A stretch of 64,000 nt of DNA from an uncultured bacterium (GCA_964395205.1 CAYNBL010000001.1:10113-74112), one strand, 5' to 3'. Positions 5,737 to 61,894 are shown, counted from the stretch's first letter. Notes: generated by a model not told the origin, from the letters alone. Numbers and translations are program-made.

Positions 5737-8088
5737 TTATTCAACAGCAAACTTCTTGGTTGCCTTTAATCCATCAATATTTGTTATAAATATAAGGTAT
5801 ACACCCCGGGGTATATATTCGCCATTGAGCAAAATGCCATCCCAAACGATCTGTTTTTCAAAATTTTCTACTGCATCTGCTGTAAATTGATAAACAACCC
5901 GGCCGTCAAGTGTTGTAATGCGAACCTGGCTTTGTTCGGCAAGTCCGTCAATAGCAAGATACGGGGCAATTCCCGGATGAAAAGGCTGCGGAAAAATGAT
6001 TACATTGTCCAGGGATGTTCGCTCTTCTGTCCAGGCGATCTCATAGCGGCTTAATCCCGATGCGGTCAGCAAATAGGCATTACCATTTTGGTTGTCAAAA
6101 ACAATGTCATAGACTACGTCATCCAAAAGTTGAGAGTTTGCTGTAGTCAGGCCATTGCCGTCATCAAACCAGTGATTATTTGTCATATAGATCTGAACAC
6201 CCTGGCTTTGAGTTAATATCCATTTATTACCCTTAGCGTCAATTCTGATTTTTACGGGAACCATGCCGCTTAAACCGTCAATAGCTGGATTCATGCTGAA
6301 ATCGGTGTCGTTTGTAAAAGAGGTGGGGGTGCGTATCATTTGTACCCCTGAAGCAGTGGCCACCCACATATTTCCCGTGATGGGATCAAGATCAATTGAA
6401 TAGACATCGTTGGATATCAATCCGTCCGAAGTGGTGATCAGCGCCCACAGACCTGAATTTTGATCATAAACTGTTATCCCACCAACTGTTCTGGGTATAT
6501 CGGATTGTCTTGCTTCATTGGCGATCCAGAGTCGACCGTATTTATCAAAGACCATTTCTCTTGCAAGTGTCTGTAGTGTGTTCCCGGATTCGCTTTCGGA
6601 ATATTTTTGGATGTCTCCATTCGGTCGGATCTTAAGCAAGGTTTGGGCGCTAATAGTGTGTACATTTAATGCCCAAACATTATTGTAAATATCTTCTGCA
6701 AGGCCCCGCATTTTTAAATAATATGAGCTTCCACCCAGCTCTTGCGTTCCTTCAATAATACCGTCACTTGTATCGTATACGGTATACTGGGAAAGATCGT
6801 TCAAATCAATACGCTGTAATGCGCCCGGACCCTCTGCATTCTGAGATTTACCATTATAATAATTATAGATGCTTACATCTGAAATAGTACAAAACAATTC
6901 TTCTGATGAGGTTATCAATGCATCATAGACAATGGCTCCTCCGGTACGATAAGCAATATTTAATGTGTCGGCCGAATATTTGTCGACAAATTTTTCATCG
7001 TGAATAGCTTCTATATAAGGTGAAAATACAAGATTGTGCCAACTTTTCCCTTCTAAAATAGAAATTCCGCTTAATCCACAGACTGCCACTTTTTGATCAG
7101 CTGTAATGGTAAGTGAATTTGACTTCATATACAGTGAAGTGTTAGGAATAAACTGTTTTGTTCCTGCGTCGTTTACCAAAACACGTGATATACCCCTGTT
7201 TTCCTCAGCTACCCATAAGGTGTCGCCCTGAAAAGAAAAACCGCTCAAATCATTATTGGAATTATATATGCTTTCGCCTGTTAAGGCATTATATATGGTG
7301 TGCTGTGTTGCATAATAATAATTGTTGCCCTCTTGGTAAAACGCAAGACTTGTTTGGTCACCTTCAAATATTTTCTTTTCTACACCATTGAAATAGCTGT
7401 AAAGATCATTGTCTTCATTGACGACGAAAAGACTGTCGCCGAAAACACCAAGACCTTTTGGTGCTGAACTGCTGTCAAGATTGACGGTTGTCCATGCGCT
7501 TTCAGGTTTCAGATTAGCGTTATAGAGCCATGCTTTATTTAAACCCTTGTCTGTTGCAACAAAGATACTGTCCCCAACAATTAGCATATCATAAATAACT
7601 TCGGGGTTATCTGGAAATTGATTATAGGTGTCCTGAAAGACATATCGGTTATTATTCTTAACGAAATGGGCGATCTCCGGAGCAAAATCATTCATGTACA
7701 CGGCTAGCACATGGCCCTCATTCCCGGTAATTGATGATGTGTTGGAAAAACCATAATCAAAATAATCACTATTACCGTTCTCCGAACGATAACTAATTCC
7801 ATCTATTCCCGAGGCATAAGAATACCATTCACTTCCATCTTTATTAACAAAATAGCGAAGTATGTCAATGTGCTTTAACTGATCTGTATTGTTTTCTTCA
7901 CTAAATATTTCTTGTTCTGTGTCAAAAATAACGAGCCCCCCGTGGGAAGCGGCGCGAAGTGTGTTGCCAGAAATATGCAAATCTTTGAGGGTTAATTGAG
8001 ATCCATATGACACCCAGTCACCCACTACCGCATAAAGCATTCCTACACAGAGAAAGCCAAGTAAAATAAATGAGCGCAAAACTCTCAT
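5737..8088 (-). CDS. Secreted beta-propeller repeat protein with T9SS C-terminal sorting domain (PorZ-like size and architecture)
   Basis: 783 aa with a signal peptide. It has repeated Reg_prop-like segments (..W.AT..GL..) and a C-terminal beta-sandwich, ..IIFPQPFHPG...GVYLIFITNIDGLKATKKFAVE, typical of a T9SS CTD. Confidence 0.55.
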   Translation of the reverse strand: MRVLRSFILLGFLCVGMLYAVVGDWVSYGSQLTLKDLHISGNTLRAASHGGLVIFDTEQEIFSEENNTDQLKHIDILRYFVNKDGSEWYSYASGIDGISYRSENGNSDYFDYGFSNTSSITGNEGHVLAVYMNDFAPEIAHFVKNNNRYVFQDTYNQFPDNPEVIYDMLIVGDSIFVATDKGLNKAWLYNANLKPESAWTTVNLDSSSAPKGLGVFGDSLFVVNEDNDLYSYFNGVEKKIFEGDQTSLAFYQEGNNYYYATQHTIYNALTGESIYNSNNDLSGFSFQGDTLWVAEENRGISRVLVNDAGTKQFIPNTSLYMKSNSLTITADQKVAVCGLSGISILEGKSWHNLVFSPYIEAIHDEKFVDKYSADTLNIAYRTGGAIVYDALITSSEELFCTISDVSIYNYYNGKSQNAEGPGALQRIDLNDLSQYTVYDTSDGIIEGTQELGGSSYYLKMRGLAEDIYNNVWALNVHTISAQTLLKIRPNGDIQKYSESESGNTLQTLAREMVFDKYGRLWIANEARQSDIPRTVGGITVYDQNSGLWALITTSDGLISNDVYSIDLDPITGNMWVATASGVQMIRTPTSFTNDTDFSMNPAIDGLSGMVPVKIRIDAKGNKWILTQSQGVQIYMTNNHWFDDGNGLTTANSQLLDDVVYDIVFDNQNGNAYLLTASGLSRYEIAWTEERTSLDNVIIFPQPFHPGIAPYLAIDGLAEQSQVRITTLDGRVVYQFTADAVENFEKQIVWDGILLNGEYIPRGVYLIFITNIDGLKATKKFAVE

Positions 8089-58284: not shown

Positions 58285-58402
58285 CGGTGATGTAAAGACG
58301 CGATTAATCGCGTCTTTACATATCGTATTTCCTTTGATTATATATAAAAAATATATATAATTCAGTCTTGAAAAAATGTAAACCAAATCAAAAGGAAACA
58401 TC

Positions 58403-58633
58403 ATGTTAGATAGAGCAAAAGTTCAAGAAATTTTAGATAAAGTACGTCCTTCATTGCAGATGGATGGCGGTGACTGTGAATTGGTCAATGTCCGTGAAGA
58501 TAATGTCGTTGAAGTTAGATTGACAGGCGCTTGCAATGGTTGCCCAATGTCAACCATGACATTAAAAGCCGGCATTGAACGCGTACTCAAAAACGAAATT
58601 CCCGAAATTGTGGAAGTCGTTTCTGTTCAATAA
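58403..58633 (+). CDS. NifU C-terminal-domain (Nfu-type) Fe-S cluster protein
   Basis: 76 aa with the motifs DGGDCELV and GACNGCPMS. Confidence 0.85.
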   Translation: MLDRAKVQEILDKVRPSLQMDGGDCELVNVREDNVVEVRLTGACNGCPMSTMTLKAGIERVLKNEIPEIVEVVSVQ

Positions 58634-59862
58634 TGTCTGATTTTTATAATCGTTTCGATACCGAAACTCTCGGGGCACGGCACGATGATCATTATCGTAC
58701 CGTGTTCCAAGTAGATCGCGACCGTGTACTCTATAGCGGCGCCTTTCGTCGTTTGCAGAACAAAACCCAGGTCTTTAAATCCGGAGCACACGATTTCTAC
58801 CGCACACGATTGACCCACTCATTAGAGGTCGCTCAGATCGGCCGCTCCATTGTTAACTTTCTTAATAAAACAGTTTTCAATAAAGCCGCGATCGATGTGG
58901 ATCTGGTTGAGGGCATTTGTTTGGCACACGATCTTGGGAATCCGCCTTACGGGCACCTGGGAGAGGCAATGCTAAATGATCTTATGAAGAAGGCGGGTGG
59001 TTTTGAGGGTAATGCTCAAACCTTACAGATCATCACCGAACAATTGCATGAAGATCCCGAAGGCGACGAGGGCATGAAGCCAAGTCGAGCATTTATTGAT
59101 GGTATTCTTAAATACAAAGTCCTGTGGTCCGATAGAAAAAAAGAAAGCAAATTCCTCTACGATAACCAATCCAAATATTTGGATTTTGTCAGCGATGGAA
59201 GCAATCATTATTCCGAACGAAGTCTGGAATGCCAGATCATGAATTGGGCCGACGATGTGGCTTATTCTTTGCATGATCTTTCGGACGGTTATCTTGCCGG
59301 GTTTGTGACACGCAAAGAGATAGAAAAATGGGCAGATGGTCACGAACTAAGTAAAGAAGAAGCGCACTACTTGGAAACAGTCATCAAAAAACTGGATCAT
59401 CGTGAAGATTTCGACCGATATCTGGCCTCACGTACCGGACGATTTATTGAAGGCGCAAAGATCGTTGAGCGCCAGCATTCTCTGGCTGCTAAAAGCAATC
59501 GTTATAAATATGCTATTGAGACAGAATCCGAGGTTGAAATAGAGAACAATCTATATAAGCGCCTGGCTGTTGATATTATTTTTCGATCACCTCAGTTGGA
59601 GCAATTGGAATTCAAGGGGCGTTATATTTTAAAGCGTCTTTTTGAAACTTTTCTCCAGGGTGGTCCTGGAAACTTTGATCTGAACGAAAAGATCCTTCCG
59701 AATGTTTTGAGAGAAAAGCTAAAACATATTGATAAGAATGATTATGTGGCTGTTGCCCGTATGGTGTGTGATCACTTTTCCGAGCAAACGGATATATCGC
59801 TACCCAAAATCTATAAGCGTCTGTTCGACCCCGATTATGGCAGTTTTTATGATATAGTATAG
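58633..59862 (+). CDS. dgt: dGTPase-family HD-domain triphosphohydrolase
   Basis: Contains the motifs FQVDRDRVLYSGAFRRLQNKTQVF, RTRLTHSLEVAQIGRS and AHDLGNPPYGH. The start overlaps the NifU-like stop (TAATG). Confidence 0.88.
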   Translation: MSDFYNRFDTETLGARHDDHYRTVFQVDRDRVLYSGAFRRLQNKTQVFKSGAHDFYRTRLTHSLEVAQIGRSIVNFLNKTVFNKAAIDVDLVEGICLAHDLGNPPYGHLGEAMLNDLMKKAGGFEGNAQTLQIITEQLHEDPEGDEGMKPSRAFIDGILKYKVLWSDRKKESKFLYDNQSKYLDFVSDGSNHYSERSLECQIMNWADDVAYSLHDLSDGYLAGFVTRKEIEKWADGHELSKEEAHYLETVIKKLDHREDFDRYLASRTGRFIEGAKIVERQHSLAAKSNRYKYAIETESEVEIENNLYKRLAVDIIFRSPQLEQLEFKGRYILKRLFETFLQGGPGNFDLNEKILPNVLREKLKHIDKNDYVAVARMVCDHFSEQTDISLPKIYKRLFDPDYGSFYDIV

Positions 59863-60559
59863 GACCTCACACAGAGGCACAAAATATCATAAGACAAAAA
59901 GAATATAATACCTCTCACAAAGGCACGAAATATCACAAAGCCACCAAGAAGAAATTCTAAGGTTTGGCACTAAGGGTAGTAAGACACAAAGAATACAATA
60001 TTAACCCTGAGCGAAGACGAAGGGTTGATTAATAATAGCCCGGGATGAAATCCCGGGTTAATAGTATTCAATATAAAAACAACCCCGAATGGAGTTAAGG
60101 GGGTGAACGGAAATTTAATTGTTTTGACCCCAGCGGGGTCAAAATATTAATAGCCCACGACGACGTCGTGGGTATAGGAATTATCAAATGAATACAACCA
60201 CAGCGTGGTTGAACATAACAATTATATTGAACTACGCTGTAGTTCATTTTTCCAAGAATGTATTTCTACGATATTGGACCCCTAACGGAGTCAAGATGTT
60301 CAACCCTTCCATCAGACTTCGCTCTCTGAGCTTCGCCCGACAAGTCCGTCAGGGTTGTAGTTGTTAGGGGATTTATGTCCCCGGGGTTTCACCCCGGGTT
60401 ATTGTTGTTTTACCCCTCCATACGTCGGGGTAAGGTAATAATATTTCAACGGTTCCTTAATTACTATTTTTTCTCTCCCCGGTGTATTATATCTCCCTGT
60501 GTAACAATATTCTTATCTTCATTGTGGCTCTGTGGCACTTGGCGCCTCCGTGTGAGGTC
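59863..60559. repeat. Non-coding island bounded by inverted repeats and carrying an array of about 11 GC-rich stem-loops (foldback/MITE-like element or large structured RNA)
   Basis: Terminal inverted repeat GACCTCACACAGAGGC (59863-59878) / GCCTCCGTGTGAGGTC (60544-60559), 15 of 16 complementary. A second inverted pair lies at 59934-59952 / 60516-60534. The left arm holds two direct copies of a roughly 46-nt unit. Hairpins lie at 60003-60433. The only ORF is a 64-aa artefact. Confidence 0.6.
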
Positions 60560-60614
60560 TTTTCCCTGAATTAATTTCTTGACATTGCCCCTATATTAAG
60601 GGAAATTTCATACT

Positions 60615-61436
60615 ATGAAAAATATTAAATGGTACTACCCGGTATCTCTCGCTGAGGCGGCGTCCCTGCTAGAGAAAAAAAGTAATGTCCCCCATGGTGG
60701 CGGAACCAATCTAAGCGGTCGCGATCTTTCCGGCGTTGAGGGAATTATTTGCCTCAAGAAGCTTGGTTTGGATTATGTGAAAAAAGACAAAGACATTATT
60801 GAAATTGGTGCGATGACAAGTTATGCAGAGCTTGTTAAGAAGCTAGGATCAATTTCTCCCGACAATATTCTTGTCAAATCTTTAAAAAATGCCGCCAATA
60901 CACCCTGTAGGAACAGGATCACTATTGGTGGATCTATTGCCTTTGTACCCACATGGTCCGATCTGATCGGTGCCCTGTTGGTGCTTGATGCCACCCTTGT
61001 GCTTATCGGTAAAAAAAGCGGAGAATTTAAAGTCGCAGATTACCTGGAGCAAAAAGAATTGCAAGATCAAACACTTATTTGTGCTATGCGTGTTAAAAAT
61101 ACAGTCCATAGATCAGTTCATTATCGTGATGTAAAAACCGTCAATGATATGCCCTTATTTACAGTAACGACCTTATTAGAGCTTGATGGCGCATGCATCA
61201 AAGCAGCAAAAGTTTATATTGTCGGAACTACTGAGCGCATCACAAAATTATCTGAAGTAGAAGCATATATTCAGGGAAAAAGCAAAGAAAAGATAGATGA
61301 AATAGCGGTGCAGGATCTTGTAAATGTTGCTTTTGTCGGCAGTAGAATTACAGACCCTGAATATATGAGCTATAAAGCAAAAATCGAAACAGGACGTGCG
61401 ATCTTTAAAGCGCTGGAGAATGACCAATGGAAGTAA
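60615..61436 (+). CDS. Xanthine-dehydrogenase-family FAD-binding subunit (CoxM/XdhB-like)
   Basis: 273 aa. The N-terminal YYPVSLAEAASLL....PHGGGTNL is typical of the FAD_binding_5 domain. Confidence 0.8.
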   Translation: MKNIKWYYPVSLAEAASLLEKKSNVPHGGGTNLSGRDLSGVEGIICLKKLGLDYVKKDKDIIEIGAMTSYAELVKKLGSISPDNILVKSLKNAANTPCRNRITIGGSIAFVPTWSDLIGALLVLDATLVLIGKKSGEFKVADYLEQKELQDQTLICAMRVKNTVHRSVHYRDVKTVNDMPLFTVTTLLELDGACIKAAKVYIVGTTERITKLSEVEAYIQGKSKEKIDEIAVQDLVNVAFVGSRITDPEYMSYKAKIETGRAIFKALENDQWK

Positions 61437-61894
61437 TATTAAATGTAAACGGGAAACCGATCAAAGTTGAGTTTACTCCCGAAGAGCATCTTCTCTATAC
61501 GCTCCGGCAAAACGGTTTTACGGAAGTAAAAAGCGGATGCAAAGAAGGCGAATGTGGCGCTTGTCTGGTCTTGCTGAACGGGAAACCGGTCAATTCATGT
61601 TTGATGTTCACCGCATCGGTAACAGAAGAAGATAAGCTCCTAACAGTAAAAGGTATTGGCGATCTTCATGAACCCCATGTTATTCAAGAGGCGTTTGTGG
61701 ATTCGGGCGCAGTTCAGTGTGGCTTTTGCACACCTGGTATTGTTCTTGCATCTTATGCCCTTTTGCAAGAAAATTCCACACCCACCGAAGAAGAAGTTAA
61801 AAAAGCCATGGATGGAAATCTTTGCCGCTGTACCGGTTACGTTAAAATAATCGAGGCGGTTCAACTGGCGGCCAAACGACTCCAAAAAAAGTAG
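61427..61894 (+). CDS. Xanthine-dehydrogenase-family [2Fe-2S] subunit
   Basis: 155 aa with two cluster motifs: GCKEGECGACLVLLNGKPVNSC and QCGFCTPG...NLCRCTGY. Confidence 0.92.
   Translation: MEVILNVNGKPIKVEFTPEEHLLYTLRQNGFTEVKSGCKEGECGACLVLLNGKPVNSCLMFTASVTEEDKLLTVKGIGDLHEPHVIQEAFVDSGAVQCGFCTPGIVLASYALLQENSTPTEEEVKKAMDGNLCRCTGYVKIIEAVQLAAKRLQKK

Follow-up and report, generated by a model that had tools for sequence, protein, structure and literature searches.

REP, REPIN and BIME repeats from Enterobacteria and Pseudomonas are short extragenic imperfect palindromes that occur as inverted doublets and as mosaic clusters, often right after stop codons; they are spread over the chromosome in high copy number, are associated with a RAYT (Y1 HUH) gene and have a conserved GTAG or CGTC tag beside the palindrome. 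BOX from Streptococcus pneumoniae and Correia/NEMIS from Neisseria are modular foldback repeats with complementary terminal modules and a variable number of ~45-nt internal modules; Tn7/Mu-type elements have arrays of transposase-binding end repeats and a 5-bp target duplication, and attC sites are 57-141 nt in length, feature R''/L''-L'/R' boxes and extrahelical bases, have cassettes between them, and are accompanied by an IntI integrase in the genome. REP-type repeats have been surveyed (PMC3733652). The element described here is a 697-bp island (59863-60559) located between a dgt-like gene and an xdh operon in a 64,000-nt stretch of DNA from an uncultured bacterium (GCA_964395205.1 CAYNBL010000001.1:10113-74112; this whole stretch is the window, and related loci and contigs are cited by L numbers). 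The host is assigned to Marinimicrobia/Fidelibacterota, as the dgt protein finds its relatives in Candidatus Neomarinimicrobiota, Marinimicrobia and Fidelibacterota metagenome-assembled genomes (MAGs). Among bacterial interspersed palindromic repeats the island represents a new local variety, and it is neither a classical transposon nor a conserved RNA gene; the favoured interpretation, held with moderate confidence, is that of a compound cluster of lineage-specific interspersed palindromic repeats which is BIME/REPIN-like and has ends resembling those of a miniature inverted-repeat transposable element (MITE).

Like REP, REPIN and BIME repeats, the island features extragenic imperfect palindromes, inverted doublets and a mosaic of alternating orientation within an intergenic gap; conservation beyond the neutral expectation and rapid gain and loss of units are shared as well. 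The unit itself differs, being a 113-nt set of three different hairpins rather than a single 20-40-nt palindrome; the island also has long outer arms of A-rich words, no RAYT gene linked to it and an apparently low density, with none elsewhere in the 64 kb, while relatives have copies at several kinds of intergenic site. The resemblance to BOX and Correia/NEMIS lies in a modular, non-coding, foldback build and in a position between genes where transcripts can be affected; however, neither has sequence similarity to the island, and the copies of Correia elements are nearly identical and have a TA target duplication, whereas the islands considered here are all different mosaics without duplication.

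The whole island is one large degenerate palindrome with its centre at ~60220, and its symmetry extends beyond the ends: once the right half is reverse-complemented, the left half (59863-60220) can be aligned to it over the full length at a score of 80, compared to 9.6 +/- 5.1 for shuffles. The fold z-score against shuffles is -8.2 on the plus strand and -11.3 on the minus strand, and at least 12 GC-stem hairpins of 17-25 nt, with stems of 5-8 bp, lie within the non-coding gap. Most of the interior is described by R1, a covariance model of a ~113-nt three-hairpin module in which hairpin A is CAACCCY...RGGGTTG, hairpin B is CCCGGGGT-TTC-ACCCCGGG followed by TTATTG, and hairpin A' is ACCCCTC...GGGGT. 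A search of the island with R1 returns three module copies, two inverted and one direct, in the orientation order -,-,+. From left to right, the parts of the island are:

59863-59995, no strand assigned: left outer arm, A/C-rich, with words of the CACAAAG/CACGAAG/CACCAAG/CACAGAG type and the terminus GACCTCACACAGAGGC (direct repeats D1 and D3)
59863-59910 and 59909-60001: short and long left-arm units, respectively
59996-60110, minus strand: module copy 1, with hairpin A', a hairpin B variant CCCGGGAT-TTC-ATCCCGGG and hairpin A (R1 87 bits, E 5e-21; nhmmer 72.8 bits)
60119-60216, minus strand: module copy 2, diverged, with hairpins GACCCC-AGC-GGGGTC, CCCACGACG..CGTCGTGGG and AACCAC-AGC-GTGGTT (R1 53.7 bits, E 5e-12)
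60222-60295, no strand assigned: central segment at the palindrome centre (~60220), with solitary hairpins TGAACTAC-GCT-GTAGTTCA (60228-60246) and GACCCC-TAAC-GGAGTC (60277-60292); inverted repeat I4
60296-60439, plus strand: module copy 3, with hairpin A as CAACCCT...AGGGTTG, hairpin B at 60380-60398 with TTATTG, and hairpin A' as TTACCCC...GGGGTAA (R1 76.4 bits)
60440-60559, no strand assigned: right outer arm, T/G-rich, a diverged reverse complement of the left arm that ends in GCCTCCGTGTGAGGTC, then TTTT (inverted repeats I1, I5, I10 and I14)

Module copy 2 displays compensatory differences against L109 and L116, and the hairpins of the central segment occur in the same order in L006, L109 and L116 and at a second locus in L005. 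The loop of hairpin A in copy 3 holds a GC-rich insert of ~32 nt (about 60312-60347). GC-rich modules of ~32-45 nt and of this type, CTTCGCT..GAGCTTCGCCCGACAAG, are also seen at L071 3575-3615 and 3688-3725, L006 5520-5560 and L021 5231-5262; they sit inside the loops of hairpins A and A' or alone, in either orientation, and look like a further repeat family. The tetranucleotide GTAG is present in the stem at 60239-60242 and after hairpin A; these are individual occurrences and not a systematic count.

The terminus GACCTCACACAGAGGC begins at 59863, the first base after the dgt TAG; its reverse complement at 60544-60559 has one mismatch, and a third copy with three mismatches (59909-59924) opens the second left-arm unit. 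The 15/16 terminal inverted repeat reported in the original prediction is confirmed and non-random, with three terminus matches in the island against 0.19 expected and three or more reached in 0 of 100 shuffles, and every sequence quoted there lies at the coordinates given for it. This outer pair can be extended to 21 nt at 86% complementarity (repeat search, I5); the second inverted pair noted further in is likewise real and extends to 46-nt arms (59907-59952 and 60516-60561) at 74% complementarity (I1). The repeat search also recovers the two direct units of the left arm (D1, D3), whose tail TAAGACAMAAAGAATAYAATA occurs exactly twice against 0.02 expected. The insertion that had been proposed to split the second of these units is doubtful; the first copy is probably a short, deleted form, because the long form is the unit repeated three times in L006. 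Within the window a cluster of CACAAAG-type words occurs only at the island, and the right end of the island scores as terminator-like (60544-60558 and a T run). As originally stated, no transposase is present and no target-site duplication is found at the island flanks (...GTATAG/GACC and GGTC/TTTTCC, with the slash at the boundary); none is found at other copies either. The 697-bp gap after dgt is real non-coding DNA, in agreement with the original prediction: the plus-strand open reading frames (ORFs) of 59 and 64 aa have no Pfam match, and neither these nor a 50-aa minus-strand ORF is intact in the closest relative, L006, so no ORF is conserved.

The sequence of the island is not neutral, and its modules vary far less than synonymous sites do. 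When the window is compared with L006, the four-fold sites of the dgt, phoH and xdh genes are 0.61-0.67 identical compared to 0.92-0.95 for the shared core blocks of the island, a roughly 5-10-fold lower divergence of the blocks; the outermost stretch of the right arm is only 0.73 identical. Across larger distances, four-fold identity and module/core identity are ~0.53 and 74-75% for L109, 0.41-0.45 and ~67% for L116, and 0.375 and 78% for L117. Hairpin B is identical in the window, L006, L109, L116 (twice), L117, L118 (twice) and L005, where four-fold identity falls to as low as 0.375. A recent recombination tract between the window and L006 was considered as the cause of the high island identity and is unlikely; the gene ends beside the island are not unusually similar. 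Maintenance of the stems is measured over 29 distinct module copies, 22 pairs and 500 shuffles: standard pairs fill 91.8% of pair cells versus 79.3% after shuffling, 18 of the 22 pairs have changes on both sides, and 73 cells carry double changes against 23 expected; none of the 500 shuffles reached any of the covariation values, and the signal collapses in slid registers.

Islands grow, shrink and invert module by module. Orthologous dgt-xdh gaps have lengths of 105, 190, 283, 353, 487, 670, 752 (the window) and 1041 bp; the arm termini are kept in most of them and the interiors differ by whole modules. In L006, whose dgt protein is 97% identical, a 106-nt segment (about 60103-60208) that largely overlaps module copy 2 is missing, and the long arm unit is present in triplicate as a 440-nt tandem triplication. 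The core is absent in the xdh-bearing relatives L010, L017, L021, L009, L018, L111, L112, L115 and L119. A direct module copy with the right arm stands upstream of xdh even where the upstream gene is not dgt (L116, L117). No orthologous junction provides a clean empty site, and the 105-bp gap of L018 retains arm-like remnants; the idea that the island was inserted as one discrete 697-bp unit is therefore not upheld, given gaps that change module by module. An identical island is found over 724 nt on contigs of three other samples.

In the intergenic DNA of Marinimicrobia, both the arms and the modules form dispersed families. Beyond the island, R1 copies are located at four or more other kinds of site, among them the phoH-nifU junction of L005 (three), L010, L012 and L007 (two each), a locus of unrelated context in L071, and both flanks of a TacA/GNAT-toxin cassette in L117 and L118; L116 has two copies. 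Inverted module doublets spaced 45-55 nt apart are present in L010 and L012, and the orientation -,+ is seen in L010, L012 and L006. Across nifU-dgt, L005 matches the window at 98.7% identity and its dgt protein is the same, yet it carries an 830-nt hairpin island between phoH and nifU (L005 355-1184), where the window has a gap of 118 nt (58285-58402) with one small terminator-like hairpin, TGTAAAGACGCGATTAATCGCGTCTTTACA. This constitutes a filled-versus-unfilled polymorphism, but looks like replacement rather than precise insertion. A metagenome scan for the arm unit returned 64 loci, with only L073 and L094 adjacent to dgt; arms of the type GACCTCWCACAAAG... lie beside unrelated genes in L048, L058, L071, L080 and L092 (twice), and the terminus GACCTCWCACA with its following unit is found at unrelated intergenic sites in L048, L071 and L092 (twice). 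In 831 kb of related loci only the modules recur and never the whole island, and each island differs from all others. Plasmids and phages gave no BLAST match to the island; in viral contigs hairpin B has none, and the 21 matches to the 16-mer terminus are mostly chance or coding. The literature search on Marinimicrobia palindromic repeats returned nothing relevant, and the arm-word sequences match only primer lists.

The dgt-xdh junction behaves as a hotspot for toxin-antitoxin and defence cassettes. Genes for AbiEii, Fic, TacA with a GNAT toxin, KilA-N and SLFN_AlbA_2/SEC-C proteins are seen at this junction in L007, L008, L111, L112, L115, L117 and L118; two three-hairpin modules in direct repeat enclose the TacAT cassette of L118. 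In L008 an insertion sequence (IS) with a DDE transposase lies near the junction, and a second, partial dgt 3' end (6850-6982) stands downstream of an inserted Fic gene, with the usual left arm coming after it; this is the pattern of an element that integrates in a gene 3' end and brings a replacement end. Contigs L004, L005, L110, L113, L114, L117 and L118 end inside islands or at their edge, which fits repeats or strain heterogeneity breaking the assembly.

Stems maintained in this manner could also serve an RNA, and it is possible, though unlikely, that the island or its core (60222-60440) is a large multi-hairpin non-coding RNA, or a cis-acting leader or 3' untranslated region which controls xdh or stabilizes the dgt transcript, with the conservation being due to selection on RNA. 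Such an RNA would suit the very stable fold of both strands, the covariation of local stems, a core far more conserved than synonymous sites, the terminator-like right end, and the direct module with right arm that precedes xdh without a dgt neighbour in L116 and L117. The mismatches tolerated in the stems do not suit it: across the 29 copies G·T occurs 23 times and A·C 22 times, whereas an RNA made from one strand should tolerate only G·T. This argues that the hairpins are constrained as DNA, or that both strands are constrained equally. An early by-eye impression of minus-strand U·G mismatches was dropped after this count. A strand-specific RNA gene is unlikely because the better-folding strand changes between relatives (minimum free energies are inconsistent and confounded by arm composition), Rfam has 0 matches at gathering score over the window, and both module orientations occur within single islands; the Rfam matches at E <= 1 over 59000-61500 are at chance level, the best being anti-hemB at 29 bits versus 49.5. 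The core is absent from several xdh-bearing relatives, the module also lies at unrelated loci, length varies tenfold and architecture differs among orthologues; the single RNA domain of ~700 nt envisaged in the original prediction is thus not supported.

A classical non-autonomous transposon, either a MITE or decayed Tn7/Mu-type ends with a DDE transposase binding the repeated subterminal units, is an improbable explanation. The non-coding island does have 16-21-nt terminal inverted repeats (16 nt with one mismatch at their core), subterminal units that are repeated asymmetrically between the arms, family termini at several loci, and the IS near the L008 junction; however, uniform full-length copies are found neither in the window nor in the 831 kb of related loci, no target-site duplication is seen, the island encodes no transposase, and at orthologous junctions the termini keep their position despite the turnover of the interior. 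Direct reading found no GACCTCWCACA-type terminus just upstream of the L008 transposase gene, the far side of which lay outside inspection. The proposal of a non-autonomous MITE-like or foldback element came close to the mark in that family copies exist at other loci; the comparison to Tn7/Mu ends fails, as there is no transposase, other conserved ORF or duplication, only modules recur, and the interior consists of hairpin modules. More doubtful still is a cassette-recombination array, in which the modules would be integron-attC-like or dif-like sites that capture accessory genes and the island would represent empty sites at a hotspot. The AbiEii, Fic, TacAT, GNAT/KilA-N and SLFN-type genes at the junction in relatives would then be the captured cargo, with the bracketed TacAT cassette of L118, the duplicated dgt 3' end beside the Fic gene of L008 and the many hairpins that close with ..AAC/GTT.. 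as further support; against this, no integrase is seen near any island inspected, the hairpins are much shorter than attC sites, most islands have no cassette, and modules also occupy sites without accessory genes (phoH-nifU). The least credible explanation is a one-off local duplication or inversion that drifts neutrally with neither family nor function: it agrees with the lack of a second copy in the window, but is contradicted by arm and module copies at other loci and in other species, by shared blocks 92-95% identical where four-fold sites are ~65% identical, and by the strong compensatory change. The original prediction held that a lack of any other copy, together with no transcript and a dgt/xdh junction drifting neutrally in relatives, would speak for such an event; since the island belongs to a family with copies elsewhere, the first of these does not hold.

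Under the favoured interpretation of a compound repeat cluster, the two outer arms are inverted copies of a CACAAAG-word repeat with the terminus GACCTCWCACA; inside them lie a REPIN-like module doublet, one extra module copy, a few solitary hairpins and the GC-rich insert, and the whole reads as a 697-bp imperfect palindrome. Selection would act on a hairpin of DNA that forms as a cruciform or while the DNA is single-stranded at replication, and that is recognized by a protein which copies, moves or recombines it; the likely recognition sites would be the arm termini and the invariant hairpin B with its TTATTG. A gene elsewhere would encode the enzyme, with a GxxExxY PD-(D/E)XK nuclease or a RAYT-type HUH enzyme as candidates, and the island itself would then be non-autonomous. 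As a likely secondary effect, read-through RNA from dgt would fold into the same hairpins and end in GAGGTC followed by UUUU; placed directly before the conserved block that precedes xdh, the island would thus also mark the boundary of an operon and protect the 3' end.

Several points weigh against this interpretation. Elsewhere in the window there is no R1 module copy and no island 11-mer above the chance level (38 matches versus ~21 expected, all AT-rich), and copy number in the host genome may be low, unlike that of classical REPs. No mobilising enzyme is found in the window or in the Marinimicrobia loci examined, where GxxExxY genes were sought by tblastn and RAYT genes were not searched for. 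Neither a clean empty site nor a target duplication was seen, and transposition is therefore not demonstrated; the dynamics could be due to recombination between repeats, whether homologous or illegitimate, and the high conservation could stem from a host function, e.g. RNA or protein binding. In the covariation analysis the alignment had been fitted to the structure of the model and hence leans towards it, and the link to GxxExxY genes rests on five contexts, all of which come from other phyla.

Those five independent contexts (L100, L120-123, L124, L125/126 and L068) feature GxxExxY genes (TIGR04256 / PF13366) between inverted arms of the same word family as those of the island:

L100 1132-1545: 137-aa ORF bracketed by CACAAAG-type arms, a PDDEXK_3 / GxxExxY protein
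L120 1501-1878: GxxExxY gene, left arm adjoining the ATG
L124 1501-1884: GxxExxY gene, left arm adjoining the ATG
L125 1501-1884: GxxExxY gene, left arm adjoining the ATG
L068 6945-7325: GxxExxY gene, with only a degenerate remnant of the left arm

The bracketing arms are composed of CACAAAG/CACAGAG/CGCAGAG words, CTCACARAGGCAC... on one side and ...GTGCCTYTGTGAG on the other, and the 14-mer TCTCACAAAGGCAC (59913-59926 in the window) is identical to the arm upstream of the GxxExxY genes of L125 and L100. Unlike these cassettes, the island has no ORF between its arms and an interior filled with hairpin modules. The GxxExxY nuclease does not count among the known transposases. The GxxExxY family has >7,800 matches at E <= 1e-20, mostly on very short contigs, and its function is listed as unknown (TIGR04256, Pfam PDDEXK_3; PMC3424549). 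A tblastn search with six family members found no such gene in the window or the Marinimicrobia loci examined; viral contigs have no relatives of the family, and a literature search on GxxExxY yielded nothing of relevance. It is thus plausible that the island arms are an ORF-less derivative of GxxExxY cassettes, which is a lead and not a demonstration. A broader and speculative proposal, which is considered rather unlikely, is that CACAAAG arms are the ends of widespread undescribed selfish cassettes whose autonomous members encode a GxxExxY PD-(D/E)XK nuclease; ORF-less derivatives such as the island would persist through DNA hairpin modules recognized by protein, and would seed recombination hotspots for toxin-antitoxin and defence genes. 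If true, a very large protein family would thereby gain its first known role.

The words of the arms are also found in a separate setting. More than 30 rhizosphere contigs (L045-L108; Ga0163162, Ga0068860, Ga0105239 and Ga0268264), with a GC fraction of about 0.41, display a ~100-nt palindromic element in which GTTTCACACAAAGGCACAAAGTACCACAAAG and its reverse complement enclose a loop; the element forms a dispersed REP-like family of another organism and is built from the words of the island arms, and a pattern search of these contigs found no GxxExxY gene between arm pairs. In L071 (3760-3930), a 7-8-nt unit (CTTACTG/C) is repeated ~25 times in tandem, directly 3' of two three-hairpin modules and upstream of a gene start.

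The gene order on the source contigs is valS-phoH-nifU-dgt-[gap]-xdh, no transfer RNA or transfer-messenger RNA gene is found in the 64-kb window, and the 752-bp dgt-xdh gap of the window comprises the island and the conserved xdh-proximal block. The neighbours of the island are:

58633-59862, plus strand: dgt-like HD-domain phosphohydrolase gene (Pfam HD and HD_assoc), whose TAG stop at 59860-59862 adjoins the island
60560-60614, plus strand: conserved xdh-proximal block outside the island, with AATTAATTTC-TTGACA (60579-60584), a small hairpin and GGGAAATTTCATACT before the ATG at 60615
60615-61436, plus strand: flavin adenine dinucleotide (FAD)-binding subunit of a xanthine-dehydrogenase-type molybdoenzyme (xdh; Pfam FAD_binding_5), followed by the Fer2/Fer2_2 and molybdenum subunits

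The xdh-proximal block (~55 bp) is kept in every xdh-bearing relative, whatever adjoins it upstream, with 85% identity to L006, and marks the right boundary of the variable region; the right arm precedes it also in L017, L021, L109, L111, L113, L116 and L119. Both sides of its small hairpin differ together between relatives (CCCC..GGG, CCCCCC..GGGG, CCTTCA..GAAGG). The block may be a promoter/operator or a short leader structure of the xdh operon.

Marinimicrobia are abundant and uncultured, and no published account of their repeat content was found. Their intergenic DNA carries structured repeat families in which the sequence is strongly constrained and rearrangement proceeds by whole modules; annotation of such islands as RNA genes or as transposons should be avoided, and they can explain contig ends in the MAGs of this group. 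The repeat families mark sites of turnover for accessory genes (toxin-antitoxin, Fic, Abi), at which metagenome assemblies often break. Of most interest are the constraint on hairpin B, the association with toxin-antitoxin and defence junctions, and the arms shared with GxxExxY genes; the arms around these genes in other phyla provide a testable lead on the role of the family.

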